Below, one piece after another: positions 9,251-28,980 of a stretch of DNA of 42,415 bases (position 1 is its first letter; every line of letters starts with the position of its first letter). The position numbers and the translations under genes are program-made. Source of the stretch: a virus; the IMG/VR virus record IMGVR_UViG_3300045988_044581, positions 1 to 42,415 of that record. One strand, given 5' to 3'. The notes beneath the pieces were generated by a model, which was given only the letters and a program-made list of their open reading frames with translations, ran no database searches and was not told where the DNA came from.

Positions 9251-9832
9251 ATGAAATTTACAAAAATCCCAGAGGAAACATTCAAGAATATCCAGCTTAA
9301 TGCGGGTGTTCTTGCAAAGAGCTTCACGCCTGCGGGTGGGGAGATCACCGACATTCTCGGCGCTACTTCTGGCGGCGTGGAGTTTGAGGCAACACCGTCT
9401 TTTACAGACTACGGAGAGGACATCGACAACTGCCCGAAGAACACAAAGGAGCTCAAGAAGCTCGATTCTTGGGAGGTAAAGATGTCCGGAACCTTTATTA
9501 CGGTGACGGCAGACCTTGGCAAGAAGCTGATCGCTGCAGCAGATGTAGACGCAGAGGACACAACACACATCGTGCCTCGCAACGATATCGCCCAGAGCGA
9601 TTTCGAGGATATTTGGTGGGTTGGCGACTACTCCGACGAAAACGGAGAAAAGAACGGCGGTTACTGCGCTATCCACATGCTGAACGGCCTGTCCACTGGC
9701 GGCTTTAAGCTGAAAACTGATGACAGAAATAAGGGAAAATTTGACTTTGAGTTCACCGGTCATTACTCGCTCAGCGAGCAGGATAAGGTGCCTTTCGATG
9801 TATACATCAAAGCCGGTACTGCTGAGGCATAA
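9251..9832 (+). CDS. Major tail (tube) protein
   Basis: 193 aa, immediately upstream of the G/GT chaperone pair and the tape measure gene. Start trimmed to ATG 9251 with an RBS. Confidence 0.75.
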   Translation: MKFTKIPEETFKNIQLNAGVLAKSFTPAGGEITDILGATSGGVEFEATPSFTDYGEDIDNCPKNTKELKKLDSWEVKMSGTFITVTADLGKKLIAAADVDAEDTTHIVPRNDIAQSDFEDIWWVGDYSDENGEKNGGYCAIHMLNGLSTGGFKLKTDDRNKGKFDFEFTGHYSLSEQDKVPFDVYIKAGTAEA

Positions 9833-19110: not shown

Positions 19111-19174
19111 AGATTGGCGAGCGGTGGCGCAGAAAAGGCCGAAAATTACTTATATCAAATCCAAGGAGGGAGAA

Positions 19175-19498
19175 ATGGGAACAGACCAGACTGTAAGCAT
19201 CGCCTTTGTGATAGCGATGATTGGATGCGTTATATCGCTTGCCAACTTTTTTAATGGCCAGAAAAAGAACACACAGGGGGAGGATGCAAGAATGGAGGAA
19301 ATCCGCACATCCTGTCTGAAAGCAAACTTAAAGCTTGATAGCGTGTGCGGGACGCTCACAGACATAAAGACCGATGTAAAGGCGATGCAGAAGCAGGTCA
19401 ATGACGCGCAGCAGGAAATTGCGGTTGTGAAGAGGGACATTAAGACTGCATTTAATCGGATCGACGATATCAACAAGAGGCTCGGGAATGAAGAATAA
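19175..19498 (+). CDS. N-terminally membrane-anchored coiled-coil protein of the lysis cassette
   Basis: RBS AAGGAGG. TM segment VSIAFVIAMIGCVISLANFF followed by a coiled coil. Start trimmed to 19175. Confidence 0.6.
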   Translation: MGTDQTVSIAFVIAMIGCVISLANFFNGQKKNTQGEDARMEEIRTSCLKANLKLDSVCGTLTDIKTDVKAMQKQVNDAQQEIAVVKRDIKTAFNRIDDINKRLGNEE

Positions 19499-20675: not shown

Positions 20676-20794
20676 TCAGAAAGATTATGCGGGCACTTTG
20701 CAGGCACGATTTTTGTGTGACGCTGTATGACGATGGAACACGCAGACGGAGGATGTATTTTTGCAGAAAATGCGGGAAGATGATAGAAAGATAA
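20672..20794 (+). CDS. Small Cys/His-rich (zinc-ribbon-like) protein, 40 aa
   Basis: ATGA overlap with the endolysin stop. Product MIRKIMRALCRHDFCVTLYDDGTRRRRMYFCRKCGKMIER. Confidence 0.5.
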   Translation: MIRKIMRALCRHDFCVTLYDDGTRRRRMYFCRKCGKMIER

Positions 20795-20976
20795 CCGCCC
20801 AAGACATGCTCCTTGCGGACGCTATCGGGACGGCAATCAATGCAGAGATGGAAGTAGAACGCCTGCAGAAAGAGAACGACAGGCTCAACAAATGGCACTA
20901 TAAAATGTGTTATCTGATCTGCATCGCAGGAATCATAACCAGCTTTATCGGGATTATAGGAGCACTGTATGGATAG
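20761..20976 (+). CDS. C-terminally membrane-anchored coiled-coil protein
   Basis: 71 aa. TM segment CYLICIAGIITSFIGIIGALYG. Confidence 0.55.
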   Translation: MQKMREDDRKITAQDMLLADAIGTAINAEMEVERLQKENDRLNKWHYKMCYLICIAGIITSFIGIIGALYG

Positions 20977-21241
20977 GTCACTGATCCGCGATTTCTGGCG
21001 CTGCGGTGACTGCCAGATCATAGACTTTGCGATTATTCGGGCGAGGCTGAACGCCAACGAAAAGGAAGTGGTTCGGCTTATGCTTGATGAGTGCCACACG
21101 CAGGAGAGTGCTGCGGAGAAAATGGATGTATCCACAAGGTGCCTGCAGTCGTGGTGGTACTCTGCTACGGATAAGCTCTTAAGCATCCCGTGGGTTACGG
21201 CATACGCGAAAGAAATCAGAAGTAAATCAGAGCGGGAGTAA
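20969..21241 (+). CDS. Sigma-70 region-4-like HTH protein
   Basis: ANEKEVVRLMLDECHTQESAAEKMDVSTRCLQSWWYSATDKL resembles a region-4 HTH. It is the last gene before the terminator. Confidence 0.5.
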   Translation: MDRSLIRDFWRCGDCQIIDFAIIRARLNANEKEVVRLMLDECHTQESAAEKMDVSTRCLQSWWYSATDKLLSIPWVTAYAKEIRSKSERE

Positions 21242-21309: not shown

Positions 21310-21335
21310 AGAGGCCTATAATGGGCCTCTTTTTT
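21310..21335 (+). terminator. Intrinsic terminator ending the late operon
   Basis: AGAGGCC-TATAATG-GGCCTCT hairpin followed by TTTTT. Confidence 0.75.
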
Positions 21336-21359
21336 GATGTAAATAATTGATATTAGTTA

Positions 21360-21388
21360 TTTACAAATAAATAAACGTATAGTATGAT
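21360..21388 (+). promoter_or_regulatory. Sigma-70-type promoter TTTACA-N17-TATGAT, with inverted repeat TTATTTACAAATAA over the -35
   Basis: Hexamers at 21360-21365 and 21383-21388 with an exact 17-nt spacer in an AT-rich context. Duplicated at 22324. Confidence 0.7.
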
Positions 21389-22292: not shown

Positions 22293-22323
22293 ACATATTT
22301 TATTATTTATTTGATAATTGCTA

Positions 22324-22352
22324 TTTACAAATAAATAAATGTATAGTATGAT
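22324..22352 (+). promoter_or_regulatory. Second copy of the TTTACA-N17-TATGAT promoter
   Basis: Hexamers at 22324-22329 and 22347-22352. The surrounding ~90 bp are ~85% identical to 21345-21434. Confidence 0.7.
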
Positions 22353-22401: not shown

Positions 22402-23010
22402 ATGGAAGGAATCAGAGTTGAAAACGTAGGTGGCAAGGTTGAAATTTATACGCCTTATAACCGCGATTTCATCGACGCTTTGAAGGCGAAGGTCGGCGGC
22501 GAAAGATGGGACGCAGCTAAGAAGTGCTGGACAGCTCCAGAGGAAATGCTGGATGCAGTTCGCGCCATCCTAAAGGATGTATACGGCTATACAGACATCG
22601 AGGACGCCGGAAAGCTTTACACGGTGCGCCTGGAATCCCTTTACGCAAAGGCTGACCGTGCACCTGTATCAGCCTTCAACAAGGTCATTGCTAGAGCATG
22701 GGGACGCGATTCTGGGGCGGTTGTCGGCGATGACGTCATTTTTGTAGAAGGTTCTCCGAAGTCTGGCGGAAGCCGCAACAACTGGGAAACGATCATCCCA
22801 GAAGGATGTGTGATCGATGTACTCCACGTACCGGAGAAGGCACTGGAAAAATTTAAAGAAGAGCTTGCCGGAGAGACCTGCCCGGATTACAAGATTGTAT
22901 CCGAGACGGTAGAAGAAGAGAAGAAAGATGATCAGCGCGCGAAGCTCCTCGAAGAGCGTGAAAAACTCCTTGCAAGACTTGCAGAGATTAACAAGGAGTT
23001 GGGAGAATGA
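22402..23010 (+). CDS. Hypothetical protein upstream of the integrase, translationally coupled to it (possible recombination directionality factor or other accessory factor)
   Basis: RBS AAGGAGGA with ATG 22402, 202 aa. Stop overlaps the integrase ATG (ATGA). Confidence 0.6.
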   Translation: MEGIRVENVGGKVEIYTPYNRDFIDALKAKVGGERWDAAKKCWTAPEEMLDAVRAILKDVYGYTDIEDAGKLYTVRLESLYAKADRAPVSAFNKVIARAWGRDSGAVVGDDVIFVEGSPKSGGSRNNWETIIPEGCVIDVLHVPEKALEKFKEELAGETCPDYKIVSETVEEEKKDDQRAKLLEEREKLLARLAEINKELGE

Positions 23011-24326
23011 AGCGGGCAGCTTTATATGTCCGCGTAAGTACCGCTGAGCAGAGAGATCACGGGCTGTCAGTAGACAGCCAAATCTCTGCCCTGCAGAAAT
23101 ACTGCGAGGACAACGGATATAAGATAGCTGGCATCTATAATGACGCGGGAATCAGTGCCAGGAAGAGCTACAAGAACCGGCCGGCACTCCTGCAAATGCT
23201 GAAAGACTGCCAACAGAAACGCGTTGACATTTGTCTTTTCACGAAGCTAGACCGCTTCTTCCGGTCGGTCGCTGACTACTATGCTTGCGTGGAGCAGATG
23301 GCCGACGTTCCGTGGAGGGCAATCTGGGAGGACTACGAAACTGAAACTTCTGCAGGTGTTTTCAAAGTCAACATCATGCTTTCTGTTGCTCAGTCGGAAG
23401 CGGATCGGACTTCTGAGCGAATAAAATCCGTAATGGATTACAAGCGGGCACGCGGTGAGTACGTCGGTACGGTGCCGGTTGGATACAAAAGGCAAGGAAA
23501 GACCCTTGCGATTGACCCGGAGACAGAGGCAGGCGTTCGCGCTCTCTTAGAAGGATACCTGGATTATTTGCCGCTTGATGAGTGTGTGAAAAACGCAAAG
23601 GAAAAAGGCGTGACATTCCACCGGAGGACGGCGAATGACGTGCTGAAACGCCCCACCTACTACGGGGACGCATACGGCTGCAAAGTACCGGCGTACATCA
23701 CCAAAGAGCAGCACGATGCAATCATGCAGCGGATGAGCGAGAACATCCGCAAGCCAATCCGGACGGGCGTTACCTTTACGTTTCAGGGCATGTGCCGTTG
23801 CGGATACTGCGGGCGAAGAATGTCCAGCACATCCCGCCGCAGGCACTCAGGAAAGCGTGGTGACTACATACAGATTATCTATCAGTGTCCAAAGCACGTT
23901 AATGATTTCATACATCCCATCTGTAAAGGGTGCGGGATCAATGAGGAATTTTTGGAAGATGCGATTCTGAAAGAACTGGAATCTGCGGTATCTGAGTACA
24001 ATTACAGCTTGTCAAAATCCTCAATCACAACGGCCCTTGCCGACTATAATAGGGAAAAAAAGAAGATTGAAGACAAGAAGAAGCGCCTTGCTGAGCTTTA
24101 CGAAGATGACATGATTACCAAAGAAGAGTATCAGGAAAGACGGGATGCACTGCGCGACAAGGAAAGAGACCTGAAAGCTCCGGAAGCTGCAAGAAAGGTC
24201 ATCCTTCCTGCAGGGTGGAAGGAAACGTATTTTTTACTGGATAAAGAAAACCGCCGCCTCTTTTGGAGACGAACGGTCAAAGAAATTTTGGTCTATCAAG
24301 ATCACAAGGTTAAAATCGTTTTATAG
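23007..24326 (+). CDS. int: Large serine recombinase (integrase)
   Basis: N-terminal resolvase domain AALYVRVSTAEQRDHGLSVDSQ with the catalytic Ser. Cys-rich zinc ribbon CRCGYCG...CPKH. C-terminal coiled coil. Confidence 0.9.
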   Translation: MKRAALYVRVSTAEQRDHGLSVDSQISALQKYCEDNGYKIAGIYNDAGISARKSYKNRPALLQMLKDCQQKRVDICLFTKLDRFFRSVADYYACVEQMADVPWRAIWEDYETETSAGVFKVNIMLSVAQSEADRTSERIKSVMDYKRARGEYVGTVPVGYKRQGKTLAIDPETEAGVRALLEGYLDYLPLDECVKNAKEKGVTFHRRTANDVLKRPTYYGDAYGCKVPAYITKEQHDAIMQRMSENIRKPIRTGVTFTFQGMCRCGYCGRRMSSTSRRRHSGKRGDYIQIIYQCPKHVNDFIHPICKGCGINEEFLEDAILKELESAVSEYNYSLSKSSITTALADYNREKKKIEDKKKRLAELYEDDMITKEEYQERRDALRDKERDLKAPEAARKVILPAGWKETYFLLDKENRRLFWRRTVKEILVYQDHKVKIVL

Positions 24327-24397
24327 AGCGGCGCACGGGGGTTGAACCCGCATCCCGACCTTGGGAAGGTCATATTCTACCGCTGAACTAGCGCCGC
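24327..24397 (-). tRNA. tRNA-Gly (anticodon CCC)
   Basis: Manual fold: acceptor GCGGCGC/GCGCCGC, D-arm GTTC-AGCGGTA-GAAT, anticodon arm TGACC-TTCCCAA-GGTCG, 4-nt variable loop, T-arm GCGGG-TTCAACC-CCCGT. Confidence 0.85.
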
Positions 24398-24437: not shown

Positions 24438-24505
24438 CTAATTTCTCGTACAACTTACGTGCCATTATCTTGTGTTAATGGCACGTAAGTTGTACGAGAA
24501 ATTAG
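24438..24505. repeat. Perfect 30-bp inverted repeat with an 8-nt spacer (bidirectional terminator and/or attP candidate)
   Basis: CTAATTTCTCGTACAACTTACGTGCCATTA - TCTTGTGT - TAATGGCACGTAAGTTGTACGAGAAATTAG. Lies between convergent transcription units. Confidence 0.85.
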
Positions 24506-24532
24506 GGCCGGGAATCACTCCCGACCCTTATA

Positions 24533-24835
24533 TTATGCCTTGCTTTTGATCTTTCGAATGACAGCGCTGTACTCTTTCGGGTGCAGCGCTTTTATCACGT
24601 CGAAATGCTCGTTCAGCACGTCCATAAGCTGATCCCAGTCAGCAGCAGAAGCAGCTTCCTCAAACTCCGTTTGTGGCTGCCTCTGAGGCTCTGGCGCATA
24701 AGAGTAGACCGAAGGCGCTGCACTCTCTGCGTGATCTCTGACCGAGTAGAGTATAGACAGCTTCTCGCAAGCACCGTATGTTGTATTGCCGCACTCAAGA
24801 CGCTCGATCTCGCGGTTGATCTCTCTCATGTCCAT
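24533..24835 (-). CDS. Hypothetical protein (cassette gene 7)
   Basis: 100 aa: MDMREINREIERLECGNTTYGACEKLSILYSVRDH... Last gene of the minus-strand cassette. Confidence 0.65.
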   Translation of the reverse strand: MDMREINREIERLECGNTTYGACEKLSILYSVRDHAESAAPSVYSYAPEPQRQPQTEFEEAASAADWDQLMDVLNEHFDVIKALHPKEYSAVIRKIKSKA

Positions 24836-24846
24836 GTGCTGCCGCC

Positions 24847-25209
24847 TTATCTGAGCGCGTCCATCGCTCTCTCAAGTGCGGAGCGCTCTGCAGTGGTCAG
24901 ATCATCGTCCTGCATCATCTCTTCGATGCGATCCGCAATCCTCGCCTTGCCTTCTGCCATGCTGTAGTGCCCTCTGGTATAGTGGCCTCGCACATAGTGA
25001 CGGGAGCCGCTGTATCTGCCGTAGGGCATCCGGTCGCCTCCGCTGTATCCTTCTCCTTCCAGAGCCTCGATTTTGTCGATGTTCTTTATGGTGTCGGTCA
25101 GCTTGTGGACGGTTTCCAGATCACCGGAAGACAGCTCGCCTCTCCCGGCGATTTCGTCCAGTTCGTCGCAAAGCATGGATTTCAGTCTGTACATAGATTC
25201 TTTCATCAT
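24847..25209 (-). CDS. Hypothetical protein with a Gly/Tyr/Arg/His-rich central segment (cassette gene 6)
   Basis: 120 aa: GELSSGDLETVHKLTDTIKNIDKIE...YSGGDRMPYGRYSGSRHYVRGHYTRGHYS. 4-nt overlap with the upstream gene. Confidence 0.65.
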   Translation of the reverse strand: MMKESMYRLKSMLCDELDEIAGRGELSSGDLETVHKLTDTIKNIDKIEALEGEGYSGGDRMPYGRYSGSRHYVRGHYTRGHYSMAEGKARIADRIEEMMQDDDLTTAERSALERAMDALR

Positions 25210-25610
25210 GCCTCCTTGTCAATAATCAAATTTGCGTTCTGCACTGTCGCCGCCTGCGCGCCTTCGTTCCGGATGCTGAGCTGATAGCAGCAGCATTTCG
25301 GCACACAAAGGATCACTTCGGAAGAAACGTTGCCAAGATCGCCGGCCGCTACAGAAGTAGTGATCATCTGCGTTCCTGGTATCGCCTCACCGTTCACGGC
25401 GATGGCAAGAGTGCTTGCTGTGGTCGCCGCCGCAGCCGACACATTCGCCCCGAACCGCACGCGGTACTTGTGGCCGCCTCTCAGGGTGAAGAGACCGGAG
25501 CCGCTTCTGTGCGGGATACCGCAGGAGCATCCGAAATTATTCGAATTGGCAAACAATACCGGAGCGCCTGCCGCAACGGTCTGCGGTGCGTTACTGATGT
25601 ATTCAGCCAT
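25206..25610 (-). CDS. BclA C-terminal-domain-like (C1q/TNF-like jelly roll) protein without a collagen region (cassette gene 5)
   Basis: LAIAVNGEAIPGT...VQNANLIIDKEA parallels, as recalled, the BclA C-terminal domain (LTIQVNGVPVPGT...ASIIIEKVA). Confidence 0.5.
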   Translation of the reverse strand: MAEYISNAPQTVAAGAPVLFANSNNFGCSCGIPHRSGSGLFTLRGGHKYRVRFGANVSAAAATTASTLAIAVNGEAIPGTQMITTSVAAGDLGNVSSEVILCVPKCCCYQLSIRNEGAQAATVQNANLIIDKEA

Positions 25611-25624
25611 TACAGCCTCCTTTC

Positions 25625-26455
25625 TCAGCAGTTACCATAGCAGCCGCCGCAGCCGTTATAAGGATTCGGCACGGTGAAGGACGGAACCGGGCGCGGGTTG
25701 TAGTATGCAAACTGCCCGTTCATGTAGCCTTTCAGCGTCTCGTTCTGCGCTGCCTGCGATGCTGCAAGCTGAGCCATGAAGAGCTGCTGATTCTTGTCTG
25801 CAATCTGTGCATCCTTCGCTGCAAGCTCCTGCGCAGTCATCTTCTGATCGAGGGCACGGAAACCATTGTTCATCGCGTCGATGATGTCGCGCGTGTTGGT
25901 CGCGTTCGCATAGTTCTGCTGGCAGAATCCGTTGCCGACTTCCTGCTGGATGGCGTTGTTCCCCATCGCCATAGCATACTTCACGTCAGCGATTGCGGCC
26001 TTGTTGTCGCAGCAGCACTGTGCAAGCTGAGCCTGCAGTGCATTGAAGCCCTGCATGTCAGTGACCTGGTTCTGCTGGATGGCGTTGCGCGTCTCATACC
26101 CGCCCTGCATGATTGCCTTGTCTGTGTTGCCGAAGCCGGTAAGAAGAGCAGAATTCTGTGCATAAAAGCCGTCGCAGATTCCGTTCTGGATCGCGTCGTC
26201 CTTGCGCTCAAGGGACGAAATACCACTGTCGATCTGTCTCTGCAGGGTTGCAAAGTCGGAAGCCAGGACATAATTCTCGGAAGCACCACCGGAGCCGTTG
26301 CCCCATCCTCCGAAGCCTCCAAAGCCTCCCCATCCGAACATGCCGAAGATGAGGAAAAGCACGATCATCCAAAGGCCAGAGCCTCCGAACGTGTCGTTGT
26401 TGCCACCAGTACAAGCCCGGATATCGGCGGGGCTCATATCGCTAGATAAGCTCAT
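25625..26455 (-). CDS. Membrane protein with a Gly-rich/YjcZ-like N-region, a Gln/Asn/Cys-rich repeat body and a CGGCYGNC tail (cassette gene 4)
   Basis: LWMIVLFLIFGMFGWGGFGGFGGWGNGSGG forms a TM-plus-Gly segment. Repeated AIQ..., N..Q and G(F/Y)C motifs. 276 aa. Confidence 0.65.
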   Translation of the reverse strand: MSLSSDMSPADIRACTGGNNDTFGGSGLWMIVLFLIFGMFGWGGFGGFGGWGNGSGGASENYVLASDFATLQRQIDSGISSLERKDDAIQNGICDGFYAQNSALLTGFGNTDKAIMQGGYETRNAIQQNQVTDMQGFNALQAQLAQCCCDNKAAIADVKYAMAMGNNAIQQEVGNGFCQQNYANATNTRDIIDAMNNGFRALDQKMTAQELAAKDAQIADKNQQLFMAQLAASQAAQNETLKGYMNGQFAYYNPRPVPSFTVPNPYNGCGGCYGNC

Positions 26456-26514
26456 AATTTTATCTCCTTTTCTTGAAATTGGTTTGTTGTATGATCACCG
26501 TGCGCACGGATGAT

Positions 26515-26697
26515 TCAAAGATTGAAAAGACCCTTGAAGGTCTGCGCAGCCGTCTGCAAGTCATTGAGCTGCTTCTGTGATATCTTCCCGGATGCAACAA
26601 GCTTTTTTACAGCTTCCTCCGGGTCTCCCTTGAATTCGCTTTTGAAGCGGTTAAATTCATTTAGCATCTGCATCGGGTTGTTTCTCATCTGATTCAT
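26515..26697 (-). CDS. Small helical hypothetical protein (cassette gene 3)
   Basis: 60 aa: MNQMRNNPMQMLNEFNRFKSEFKGDPEEAVKKLVASGKISQKQLNDLQ. Confidence 0.55.
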   Translation of the reverse strand: MNQMRNNPMQMLNEFNRFKSEFKGDPEEAVKKLVASGKISQKQLNDLQTAAQTFKGLFNL

Positions 26698-27049
26698 TGC
26701 GGCTCCTTTCCAGAGCAGATAAGCGCTCCTCTATGCTCTTGAGGCGGTCTGTGTAGTCTGTGGCGGGTGCTTTCTCCTGCGCCTGCATATCTTTGCGGCT
26801 GTACTCGTAAACCTCCATGTATGGACGACCGGAAGCATCAGAACGCTTCTCGTAAAAGACAGGGCGCGAGCTGTCCCACAATCTCACAAAGCTGTTGGGA
26901 GCCATCAGATAAGCATCTGCTGCAGCAGGAGACGACACCCAGATTCTTTCATCGGTGCTTTGCTGCTGTGGTGTCTGCTGATACTGTGAACGGAGAAAGT
27001 CAGGCATTTGCTGCTGTTGAAACGGTTGATAATATGGTTGGTACATCAT
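26657..27049 (-). CDS. Gln-rich N-terminus hypothetical protein (cassette gene 2)
   Basis: RBS GGAGGGA with ATGATG at 27049. Product MMYQPYYQPFQQQQMPDFLRSQYQQTPQQQ... 4-nt overlap with the upstream gene. Start trimmed from the track. Confidence 0.65.
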   Translation of the reverse strand: MMYQPYYQPFQQQQMPDFLRSQYQQTPQQQSTDERIWVSSPAAADAYLMAPNSFVRLWDSSRPVFYEKRSDASGRPYMEVYEYSRKDMQAQEKAPATDYTDRLKSIEERLSALERSRNESDEKQPDADAK

Positions 27050-27462
27050 CCCTCCTTCTGCCAATAATAAATTGGCACTTCTGCACCGCTGTCCCACGAG
27101 TCAAAATAGTGACCGTCCATGACAGCGACAACGTGACCATTTAGAGCAAGCAGATAATCTCCGCTGGGGTGATCCTCTGCGAAATCATTGACTGTGTAGC
27201 AGTCCGGGCAAGTGTCCGGGATCAGATACCTGTGGAATCCTTTGCTTCGGAGATAACTGCCCCACACAGAATTGGCTGCAGGAAGGTCACACATCATAAG
27301 GCCAAAGGCGCACAGATCAATGTATGTTTGCTCCCACGTCTGGCCTGTAAGCTTGGATATCGCCCGGACGGTACAATCGCCGGTTCGGGCCGCTATTGGG
27401 TTGGGGTTGTAATATGTCCATCTCATGCCGATAGCATAAAACTGCAGGAAGAAGAGGCCCAC
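27046..27462 (-). CDS. Papain-like (Cys/His) fold candidate protein (cassette gene 1)
   Basis: Motifs TGDCTVRAISK and GHVVAVMDGHYFDSWDSG. GTG 27462 has a GGAG RBS; the alternative start is ATG 27426. The track start at 27501 lies inside a terminator. Confidence 0.55.
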   Translation of the reverse strand: MGLFFLQFYAIGMRWTYYNPNPIAARTGDCTVRAISKLTGQTWEQTYIDLCAFGLMMCDLPAANSVWGSYLRSKGFHRYLIPDTCPDCYTVNDFAEDHPSGDYLLALNGHVVAVMDGHYFDSWDSGAEVPIYYWQKEG

Positions 27463-27488
27463 GATGGTGCTCCGTAAAATTTGCGCAC

Positions 27489-27511
27489 AAAAAAACCACA
27501 CCGAAGTGTGG
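27489..27511 (-). terminator. Intrinsic terminator after the XRE gene
   Basis: The minus strand reads CCACAC-TTCG-GTGTGG followed by TTTTTTT. Confidence 0.8.
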
Positions 27512-27603
27512 TATAATCAACGTGTTACGAAAGTGAATATTGATTGGTGCAAGGAAGAACCGCTCTGTTATGCAGGGCGGCTCTTTCTTTTGACTAAAAC
27601 GAG

Positions 27604-28185
27604 TTAAAGTGCGGTGTAGCTCTCACTTTTCTGCTTGACTGCTTCCCTTGCTCTTGTAATCGCTCTCTCCAGTAACGTCACATCTGGCATCGCTTGCTGC
27701 CCTCCGATCAGCCGCCCGATTGAGAGCGCAAGGACAAAATTGGATCGGATCAGAGCTGCAACGCCGATCCGCATCAGAAGTGGGGTGTGAAGGTGAGCGC
27801 AGACCATATTGAGAACGGCAGCAGGAGAAGATCCGTGGTCTCCGTATGACACATAGAGGAGCTTTTTCTTGTATGAAATTGGGAGGTCGCTCATCATGGT
27901 CAGGAGTGCCTTTGTAATTTCTTCTTCATCGTCCTGCGTGTCTACGGTCTCCATTTCCACCGGATACAGCACGCGCAGATAGTACGGAAGCGGCTGAATA
28001 CCAAGCTTGTAAAAATAGATAAATCCCGCCTTCTGCGATGGCGAGCTCGTGCCGTTCTCCCAGTTTTCAATCGTCGCTCGGCTTACTCCCATAGCCTTGG
28101 CTGCCTGCACTTGGCTAAATCCTGCAGCCGCTCGTGCATCTTTCCACATCTTCCCAAATCGTTCTGACAGTTCCACTGTGTTCAT
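27604..28185 (-). CDS. XRE-family HTH regulator with a ~120-aa C-terminal domain
   Basis: HTH FSQVQAAKAMGVSRATIENWENG. Start trimmed to ATG 28185 (MNTVELSERF) with RBS GAGGTG. Confidence 0.75.
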   Translation of the reverse strand: MNTVELSERFGKMWKDARAAAGFSQVQAAKAMGVSRATIENWENGTSSPSQKAGFIYFYKLGIQPLPYYLRVLYPVEMETVDTQDDEEEITKALLTMMSDLPISYKKKLLYVSYGDHGSSPAAVLNMVCAHLHTPLLMRIGVAALIRSNFVLALSIGRLIGGQQAMPDVTLLERAITRAREAVKQKSESYTAL

Positions 28186-28236
28186 TTTTACACCTCGTAA
28201 TTTTGGTCCAAATCCTCCTGCATGTGTCAAAGAATA

Positions 28237-28593: not shown

Positions 28594-28980
28594 TCATTTC
28601 CCTTGCTCACGGACAAGGCTTTCAGCAAAATCTTTAACACATCTTAACTCGTCATCGGTCAGGCCTGCGATTGCCTTTATCAGCTTCGTCCGGAATCCGT
28701 CATCGTCGAGGTACATCTTCCCGACGATCTGAGCAATCTCATTTTCTCGCTCTGGGGATACTTGGGGCCGCCCGGCTACATGCATCTCGCCTTCGCCTGT
28801 CAGCAGCCATTTCTTATTAATGTGGAAACGGTCACAGATAAGATTGATAGTAGATCCTTTTGGGGTTCTGTATCCTCCTTCATAAAACTTGCAAGCCTGC
28901 TCTGATAATCCAAGCATTTTTGAAAACTCCGCTTGTGTAAGTCCTGCCTCCTTGCGGATTTCTTTGATCCTTTCCTTCAT
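28594..28980 (-). CDS. CI-like XRE-family repressor
   Basis: HTH LTQAEFSKMLGLSEQACKFYEGG. Divergent from the early operon, with operators in the shared intergenic region. Confidence 0.8.
   Translation of the reverse strand: MKERIKEIRKEAGLTQAEFSKMLGLSEQACKFYEGGYRTPKGSTINLICDRFHINKKWLLTGEGEMHVAGRPQVSPERENEIAQIVGKMYLDDDGFRTKLIKAIAGLTDDELRCVKDFAESLVREQGK

Follow-up and report, generated by a model that had tools for sequence, protein, structure and literature searches.

A seven-gene cassette was analysed in a 42,415-nucleotide (nt) viral sequence (IMG/VR record IMGVR_UViG_3300045988_044581, positions 1 to 42,415), referred to here as the window. The genes, named p1 to p7 in order of transcription, occupy 24533-27462 on the minus strand. 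They form a discrete, terminator-insulated operon that is conserved over great evolutionary distance. This operon is not a lysogeny-specific set of morons; its usual place is after the lysis genes, co-directional with the late genes. Our preferred interpretation, held with less than even confidence, is that it represents an ancient and widespread accessory module of gut tailed phages, the products of which would form a membrane complex anchored by p4, with a late role around lysis or release.

Conservation and genomic context

An earlier reading of this DNA, made from the sequence alone, had treated the seven genes as one cassette, and a synteny survey bears this out. All 87 close loci, viral and metagenomic, show the invariant order p1 to p7, which is also kept in the cultured phage Ceridwen, described below. 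In ∼80 of the 87 loci the cassette is co-directional with the tape-measure, tail and lysis genes and lies directly downstream of holin and endolysin. There it converges on a serine recombinase gene or, at the end of the prophage, borders directly on host DNA. The recombinase is the conserved partner of the cassette in temperate members, and the order 'cassette+ rec-' is found in most close loci. When a phage form (locus L006) was compared with an integrated relative (L005), sequence identity stopped in the middle of a palindrome that lies 86 nt beyond p7 (L006 ∼9310-9370), indicating that the cassette is a terminal module that reads into attP. By analogy, the comparable palindrome of the window, at 24438-24505, is the probable attP of its serine integrase.

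Only the clade of the window (L008-L010, 84-95% DNA identity) is arranged differently, with two repressor genes followed by the cassette and then by the convergent recombinase. The simplest reading is that a segment comprising the cassette, attP, the tRNA and the integrase, together with the genes before it, has been inverted in this clade. The inversion alone would place the cassette on the repressor strand in the window lineage. A small regulator gene that precedes the cassette in many relatives (see below) still follows the endolysin and a small tail-anchored membrane protein in the window, and its having been left behind the lysis genes fits the inversion model. The placement on the lysogeny side and on the strand of the repressors, on which the sequence-only reading had based its interpretation as prophage-expressed genes, is thus specific to the window clade, since in the ∼80 relatives and in Ceridwen the cassette follows the lysis genes on the late strand.

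A search for inverted repeats that might be a scar of the inversion gave only a weak pair, of 24 nt at 75% identity in inverted orientation, between 21311-21334 (the terminator after the regulator gene) and 27449-27472 (the 5' end of p1). This pair may be an inversion scar, perhaps explaining the odd hydrophobic N-terminal extension of p1 in the window clade.

Two observations concern individual records of this clade. The 87-kb record IMGVR_UViG_3300045988_059305 (L010, L176 and L182) is about twice the size of the 42-kb genome studied here and collinear with it across attP, and is probably a concatemer or an assembly artefact. In L008, the region between repA and p1 (∼8770-8860) contains a tandem array of ∼11-nt AGTCAAAGTTG-like units, whereas just one such unit is present in the window.

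A further 80 genome loci are more distant, and they keep the core p2-(small open reading frame)-p4-p5-p6 at 33-64% p4 identity, with p1 in first or last position. The sources of these loci are Lachnospiraceae, Oscillospiraceae, Ruminococcus, Christensenellales and Bacilli, and some Bacteroidales-labelled bins among them are probably mis-binned. At several distant loci, p2 and p4 alone were detected with custom hidden Markov models (HMMs). Searches for cassette-less close relatives using the 417-amino-acid (aa) tail-region protein or the 90-aa regulator of the window retrieved only members of the same clade.

Carriers of the cassette and of p4

The complete cassette is present in Butyrivibrio virus Ceridwen (MN882553), with HMM E-values of 1e-19 to 1e-48 (p7, E 6.5e-26). 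All genes of this phage are on one strand and no integrase is annotated. Upstream of the cassette lie the endolysin gene and a pair of small genes, together with a predicted terminator. A 264-aa HNH/NUMOD-like open reading frame is located between p5 and p6 (L168 10130-10924), and the cassette is otherwise intact. Only lytic growth of Ceridwen has been observed, and the phage was considered probably virulent by its describers (PMC7372960).

Homologues of p4 extend beyond these phages. In the crAss-like phage cr116_1 a p4 homologue (HMM E 1.4e-36) lies just after the holin and an L,D-carboxypeptidase, and others are found in many Crassvirales, in the cultured Bacteroides phage C3_41T2LP, and in two viruses assigned to Methanomassiliicoccales, where one is annotated as phrog_16490. 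Butyrivibrio, Bacteroides and Methanomassiliicoccales are not known to sporulate. The genes after p4 in cr116_1 and C3_41T2LP are a few small open reading frames and, instead of p1, small metallopeptidase genes of the HExxH/PolyVal type (L173 4381-4728 and 6961-7356; L174 7770-8234). Profile comparison detected no homology of the p4 neighbours in cr116_1 to p5 or p2, and therefore p4 alone can be claimed as shared with the Bacteroidota version. A literature search on Methanomassiliicoccales viruses returned nothing relevant. One archaeal-virus record, Caudoviricetes sp. vir215, encodes a reverse transcriptase resembling those of diversity-generating retroelements beside a tail protein gene, just upstream of p4 (L175 3152-4186).

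Operon structure and upstream regulator

All seven co-directional genes listed in the sequence-only reading are present on the minus strand (Table 1). The two 4-nt ATGA overlaps that it described, between p1 and p2 at 27046-27049 and between p5 and p6 at 25206-25209, are read directly in the sequence. The last 41 nt of p2 also belong to p3. The overlapping start and stop codons suggest translational coupling. Ribosome-binding sites (GGAGG/AAGGAG) are positioned 5-8 nt before the start of each of p2 to p6. The GTG start codon of p1 at 27462 has a GGAG 7 nt upstream, whereas no ribosome-binding site precedes the ATG at 27426, the start typical of the family.

The bracketing of the block was also described correctly. 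Upstream there is a hairpin with a T-run at 27495-27512, leaving at most ∼33 nt for the Shine-Dalgarno sequence and start of p1. The 30-bp hairpin downstream corresponds to the perfect inverted repeat at 24438-24467 and 24476-24505, separated by an 8-nt centre. A second terminator, at 24504-24528, was absent from the earlier account. The GC content of the cassette is 0.535, compared with 0.482 in the remaining window.

A small gene of the sigma-70-region-4/GerE type commonly precedes the cassette. Of the 154 loci with enough upstream sequence, 105 have a homologue of 65-95 aa on the cassette strand, ending no more than 600 nt before the first gene of the cassette; in several other loci the gene is found between p1 and p2. 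Among 29 non-redundant members of the family, 13 match Sigma70_r4, 12 match Sigma70_r4_2 and 7 match GerE (best E 5.7e-10), and profile matches in the PDB include GerE (1fse) and region 4 of SigF, SigW and FliA. The typical arrangement in relatives is the region-4-type gene, usually a T-run hairpin, and then the first cassette gene within a few tens of bases. Terminator-like sites upstream of the first cassette gene were found at 16 of 76 loci (3 of 74 in the control), and an extended -10-like box before this gene in 21 of 76 relatives (8 of 74 in the control). The promoter-like box in the window copy is weak. We infer from adjacency alone that the upstream gene regulates the cassette.

Five of the seven proteins gave clean matches to PHROG families of unknown function, and p6 a weak one. 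For p7 no family was found in the Pfam, PHROG or NCBIfam libraries. None of the seven proteins has an above-threshold match in Pfam, NCBIfam or PADLOC. A PADLOC-DB scan of the cassette proteins gave only noise (DpdC, E 0.007 over 21 residues; ZorA, E 0.015), in agreement with the earlier remark that no known defence domain is visible. Searches of the window DNA against phage records returned short matches to uncultured entries only.

The membrane protein p4

p4 has an acidic tail at its N-terminus, followed by a transmembrane segment of the Gly-zipper type, a helical domain rich in N and Q, a Pro-rich stretch and finally a tail rich in Cys. This verifies the earlier description of a 276-aa membrane protein with a Gly-rich segment and a Cys-rich tail. 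The Gly-rich hydrophobic segment, near residues 27-50, is the only one, and a second is absent. Across 52 family members there is one hydrophobic segment, with ∼11 Cys and ∼20% N+Q, and a CCC motif is invariant within the helical domain. An exhaustive search (E<=1e-3) yielded 2,498 clusters at 50% identity, nearly all of 230-300 aa, and at 90% identity there are >7,500 clusters among the candidates scored. The charge of the flanks (K/R) is 0.35 before and 0.75 after the transmembrane segment, which weakly favours a cytoplasmic orientation of the large domain, as judged from sequence composition.

The N-terminal tail carries a motif, [LMY][ST]xx[DE][LIV]xx[LIVAC]xG[GN], that is present in 23 of 49 non-redundant p4 proteins and in 1 of 3,780 background open reading frames; the pattern was partly defined after inspection of the data. 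The window copy reads MSPADIRACTGG. The motif ends ∼10 residues ahead of the transmembrane segment, mostly with GN and not GG. C39 peptidases cut double-glycine leaders with the consensus LSxxELxxIxGG. The p4 tail resembles such a leader, and p1 of the same operon is a C39/Josephin-like candidate. No open reading frame of the size and type of a peptidase-containing ATP-binding cassette (ABC) exporter was found near the cassette in the window or its relatives.

A role of p4 as a spanin (Rz/Rz1) was considered and rejected, because the hosts are mainly Clostridia and other monoderms and there is no lipobox-bearing partner among p1 to p7.

The putative hydrolase p1

The first protein matches phrog_3754 (E 5e-28). 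In an alignment of 45 diverse homologues, residues N9, D17, C18, R21, H98, D109 and W122 are invariant. An AlphaFold 2 model with a mean predicted local distance difference test (pLDDT) score of 94.5 places Cys18 at a helix N-terminus and His98 and Asp109 on adjacent strands (DSSP: helix 18-27; strands 98-103 and 106-109). The best PDB fold match found with Foldseek is Josephin-2, at E 0.058 and a template modelling (TM) score of 0.46, which is not significant. Matches in BFVD include a phage 'Peptidase C39 domain' protein (E 5e-3), a Josephin-domain protein (E 0.012) and many uncharacterised phage proteins. Neither the single sequence nor the family alignment gave a significant Pfam or PDB sequence/profile match to any peptidase. 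p1 is plausibly a small papain-like Cys-His-Asp hydrolase. The papain-like candidate of the sequence-only reading is thereby upheld as regards its invariant Cys-His-Asp and the modelled topology; the fold matches are weak.

An analogy in which p1 would act like Tgl on the Gln-rich p2 (transglutaminase/GerQ) was rejected, as Pfam scans gave no Spore_GerQ or Tgl match.

The jelly-roll protein p5 and the small proteins

Over its full length, p5 matches the Pfam family BclA_C (PF18573) at E 4.3e-7 with 30.3 bits, below the gathering cut-off of 38. Among 37 diverse members of the p5 family, 14 match BclA_C at E<=0.01, and none of them outscores the window copy. In Foldseek searches the AlphaFold 2 model (pLDDT 88) has exosporium proteins as its closest structural matches, with E 2.5e-7 to 1e-5 and TM 0.64-0.74 overall. 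The best is the C-terminal domain (CTD) of F-BclA (9h38; E 2.5e-7, TM 0.74), and others are BclA (1wck; E 6.6e-6), ExsFA (7r1m) and BxpB (8d02), the last two with TM 0.70-0.72. The next-best matches are TNF/C1q domains, followed by knobs of phage spikes and fibres (the phi812 central spike, cyanophage fibre and tail entries). The earlier designation as BclA-C/C1q-like without collagen repeats is right for p5 at the fold level. p5 contains no exosporium-targeting N-terminal motif and no GXX collagen repeats, and its 134 aa make up the jelly roll alone. TNF/C1q jelly-roll domains are usually trimeric.

The Gln-rich composition of p2 was verified. An alignment of 71 homologues shows a Q/Y/P-rich N-terminus, a ∼55-aa beta-rich central domain and a C-terminal coiled coil; Pfam scans of family members and a PDB profile search gave no match. 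p3 sits between p2 and p4 in 114 loci. In a 48-member alignment p6 has helical ends around a low-complexity core rich in Y, G, R and S, confirming the low-complexity core noted earlier for one of the remaining proteins, and member-wise Pfam scans of this family returned only noise. The p7 HMM matches in 100 loci. Hits obtained by tblastn with p2, p6 and p7 are confined to cassette-bearing phages. PDB sequence/profile searches, with p1 and p5 and with family alignments of p1, p5 and p2, gave no meaningful match. None of the six cassette proteins other than p4 has a signal-peptide-like N-terminus.

Other features of the window

Two neighbouring plus-strand genes probably belong to the lysis module. 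The gene at 20761-20976, after the endolysin, encodes a 71-aa tail-anchored coiled-coil protein, and that at 19124-19498, before the endolysin, a 124-aa protein with a weak XhlA-like match. AT-rich, internally palindromic boxes at 21337-21374 and 22303-22340 precede two genes with similar N-termini (21384, MIRASKEIEKITYKEE; 22339, MYSMIRTSKESRKLTYKEE), an arrangement that resembles a duplicated operator or leader.

Table 1. Coordinates of the cassette and of associated features in the window
Feature	Position	Strand	Description	Family or match
p1	27046-27462	minus	138 aa from GTG 27462; core of 126 aa from ATG 27426	phrog_3754
p2	26657-27049	minus		phrog_21718 (PHROG E 1.7e-17)
p3	26515-26697	minus	60-aa helical protein	phrog_22984 (PHROG E 5.2e-17)
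p4	25625-26455	minus	single-pass membrane protein, module core	phrog_16490 (PHROG E 1.2e-36)
p5	25206-25610	minus	134-aa TNF/C1q-type jelly roll	phrog_20016
p6	24847-25209	minus	helical ends and Y/G/R/S low-complexity core	weak match to phrog_28802
p7	24533-24835	minus	100-aa helical protein, final gene of the operon	custom HMM
Hairpin with T7 run	27495-27512	minus	just upstream of p1; insulating terminator or leader hairpin	
Intrinsic terminator	24504-24528	minus	immediately after p7; 11-bp stem with 7 GC pairs	
Inverted repeat	24438-24505	.	perfect 30-nt arms, 8-nt centre; candidate attP of the serine integrase	
tRNA-Gly(CCC)	24326-24397	minus	abuts the integrase stop codon; between integrase and palindrome	ARAGORN
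Large serine recombinase	23007-24326	plus	convergent with the cassette	Pfam Resolvase (2.2e-29), Zn_ribbon_recom (2.9e-11)
Small sigma-70-region-4/GerE-type helix-turn-helix (HTH) gene	20969-21241	plus		Pfam Sigma70_r4 (E 8.8e-4, below cut-off)
Two XRE-type regulator genes	27604-28230 and 28594-28980	minus	cassette lies between them and the recombinase	

Functional interpretation

In the interpretation that we tentatively favour, the products of the cassette would come together, in infected cells, as a complex that p4 anchors to the cytoplasmic membrane, a proposal that follows from p4 being the only one with a hydrophobic segment and the other six having no signal peptide. p5 may bind p4 or sit on it as a cap, and the part of p1 may be to process one of its partners; the N-terminal tail of p4, with its resemblance to double-glycine leaders, is a candidate substrate. 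Expression would be driven by the operon's own promoter, perhaps under the control of the upstream region-4-type regulator. Because this regulator is the last gene of the lysis/late block, expression would be expected in productive infection and not only in lysogeny, a timing deduced from gene order alone. The presence of p4 in viruses of monoderm, diderm and archaeal hosts points to a target among membrane or phage components and not in a particular wall or spore layer. The role would be a late accessory function at the membrane, around lysis or release, for example the control of membrane integrity or the protection of the infected cell or the progeny from superinfection or re-adsorption.

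Several observations weigh against this interpretation. Of 44 usable loci in phages that share the adjacent tail/lysis-region gene (the neighbour gene in L005), 11 have no cassette. These 11 are rather different phages that share a modular gene, and their lack of the cassette indicates, at the level of the group only, that it is dispensable for virion production or lysis as such. p4 is the only gene detectably shared with the Bacteroidota and archaeal versions. Its positive-inside signal is weak, and the Cys-rich domain could equally be extracytoplasmic. About half of the p4 family has the tail TMPVxPAG instead of the leader-like motif, even at loci with p1. In Geobacillus phage GBK2 and Bacillus Tsamsa-like phages, homologues of p1 are found by themselves, in early regions, and Lak megaphages likewise have p1 without the rest of the cassette. 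p1 may not act on cassette proteins. The operon's own terminators, and the extended -10-like box of many relatives, are also the architecture of a prophage-expressed moron, and the prophage end beside the att site is the classical slot for lysogenic conversion in Firmicutes phages.

A more specific proposal is that of an exosporium-like machine, in which p1 cuts the p4 leader, p4 nucleates the assembly of p5 with p2 and p6 at the membrane, and the region-4-only regulator acts as the trigger. p5 would be a trimer of the ExsFA/BclA-C type, and p2 and p6, as low-complexity proteins rich in Cys, Tyr and Gln, might be cross-linked or form condensates. Such a machine would be common to bacterial and archaeal gut viruses, be switched on at the end of infection and have gone unrecognised until now. 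We regard this proposal as unlikely.

Exclusion of other phages, which the sequence-only reading had named as its alternative in the form of a wholly new system, is the main rival and a possible but doubtful explanation. The cassette would be expressed in the prophage or early in infection and provide superinfection exclusion or abortive infection, as do lambda rexAB and lactococcal Sie2009; from a constitutive promoter of its own, active also in lysogens, it would supply p4 and cytoplasmic partners by which phage DNA is blocked or sensed at the membrane as it enters. This would account for the terminator-insulated unit with promoter-like boxes directly before the first gene, for its terminal position beside attP/attR in temperate members, and for its accessory nature, as judged from the 11 of 44 phages above. 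In the window, moreover, the cassette follows two XRE repressor-type genes on their strand. A block at the membrane would work whatever the type of host, and exclusion genes occur in virulent phages too, such as imm and sp of T4. However, no PADLOC model matches and the PHROG matches carry no exclusion annotation. Known superinfection exclusion (Sie) systems consist of one or two fast-evolving genes and not of a seven-gene block conserved across phyla, and most lineages tie the cassette to lysis genes and a late-side regulator instead of a repressor. Less probable is that the products belong to the virion, with p5 as a TNF-like knob or decoration, p4 as an ejection or pilot protein that is membrane-active and whose Gly-rich hydrophobic segment resembles a fusion peptide, and the remainder as assembly factors. 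The lack of signal peptides in the six soluble proteins would be expected of virion components, TNF-like knobs are known from phage spikes and fibres such as those matched by p5, and the p4 cluster of cr116_1 lies between lysis and head genes. Homologues of p4 in crAss-like phages have also been deposited as 'spike protein/glycoprotein' or 'outer capsid protein/viral fiber', but these depositor annotations are putative labels only. Against a virion role, the cassette of siphophages is not part of the morphogenesis block: it follows the lysis genes, with a terminator in front of it, and is invertible with the integrase; it is also missing from some phages that share the neighbouring tail/lysis genes.

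The sequence-only reading had proposed a lysogenic-conversion module remodelling the cell envelope or spore surface. For a spore-forming host, whether the target is the spore coat, the exosporium or the vegetative surface, this proposal could draw on the exosporium proteins that are the closest structural matches of p5 (BclA-CTD, F-BclA, ExsFA and BxpB), on the resemblance of Cys-, Gln- and Tyr/Gly/Arg-rich proteins without signal peptides to mother-cell coat proteins, on the SpoIIE encoded by some hosts, and on the GerE-like character of the usual upstream regulator. As a general function it is contradicted by its carriers, since the full cassette is found in a lytically growing phage of the non-sporulating Butyrivibrio fibrisolvens, and p4 in Crassvirales, a Bacteroides phage and viruses assigned to Methanomassiliicoccales. 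The argument from orientation holds for the window clade only, the TNF/C1q fold is generic and also occurs in phage fibres, and p5 falls below the BclA_C gathering threshold. A literature search for links between BclA and prophages found nothing relevant. The spore-surface role is thus largely refuted and survives at most as a lineage-specific use, which we hold to be highly improbable. It is also very unlikely that there is no functional system at all and that unrelated small phage genes travel together by linkage. Such linkage would be compatible with the independence of p1 in Bacillus, Geobacillus and Lak phages, its shift from first to last position between cassette variants, and the several distant loci with p2 and p4 only. 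It is at odds with a gene order kept down to ∼33% p4 identity across different phage backbones, with the overlapping start and stop codons, and with a cassette that has stayed intact through an inversion and through an HNH insertion.

Whatever its role, the anatomy of a very common module of gut phages is now defined, and a cultured model of it exists. p4 is among the larger uncharacterised protein families of gut viruses, and its hosts include monoderms, diderms and, by database host assignment, archaea. That p4 belongs to an operon of seven genes in fixed order, with a small regulator dedicated to it, suggests a common, as yet unnamed step of gut-phage biology that is missed by current annotation. 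Cultured entry points are available, with Ceridwen on B. fibrisolvens DSM 3071 for the whole cassette and Bacteroides phage C3_41T2LP for p4, making the function of the cassette directly testable. The present case also illustrates that a gene on the strand of the repressor can be read as a lysogeny gene when its orientation is an artefact of a lineage-specific inversion around attP.

Comparison with known systems

In the libraries and literature searched, no characterised defence, lysis or structural system matches this gene set. The TNF/C1q jelly roll, the papain-like fold and the region-4 HTH are each known singly, whereas their combination, the regulator and the cross-domain p4 family are undescribed there.

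p5 has the same jelly-roll fold as the trimers of the Bacillus exosporium, BclA-CTD and ExsFA/BxpB, and like ExsFA/BxpB it is a stand-alone domain (∼135-165 aa) without collagen stalk or signal peptide. It differs from BclA and ExsFA in its low identity (17-20%) and in being encoded by phages, including those of non-sporulating hosts. It has conserved Cys pairs (CC in a strand, C-x-C near the N-terminus), and we know of no such feature in BclA. With C39 leader peptidases (e.g. the PEP domain of ComA) and Josephin deubiquitinases, p1 shares the Cys at a helix N-terminus and the His and Asp on adjacent strands, and as in papain-like peptidases a conserved Asn is found 9 residues before the Cys. 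In contrast to C39 systems, p1 has no ABC transporter partner and also occurs without p4, and the p4 motif usually has Asn, not Gly, at position -1.

The architecture of p4 is shared with the i-spanin Rz, Sie2009 and HK97 gp15, in that the transmembrane segment is N-terminal, the helical domain is long and Cys residues are conserved, and like these it is encoded near lysis genes (in the window, near repressor genes). It has no sequence relationship to them in the libraries searched and occurs mostly in phages of monoderm hosts, where spanins have no role, and conservation within its family far exceeds that of known Sie proteins. The family of the upstream neighbour matches models and structures of stand-alone GerE and sigma-70 region 4 HTH domains (Sigma70_r4, Sigma70_r4_2 and GerE). 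With the attR-end morons of Firmicutes phages, such as the toxin genes downstream of the lysin in streptococcal and staphylococcal phages, the cassette shares the slot between lysis genes and att site, the flanking terminators and the promoter-like boxes of many relatives. Those morons are variable cargo, whereas the cassette is a seven-gene block conserved over thousands of phages and present also in an apparently virulent one.

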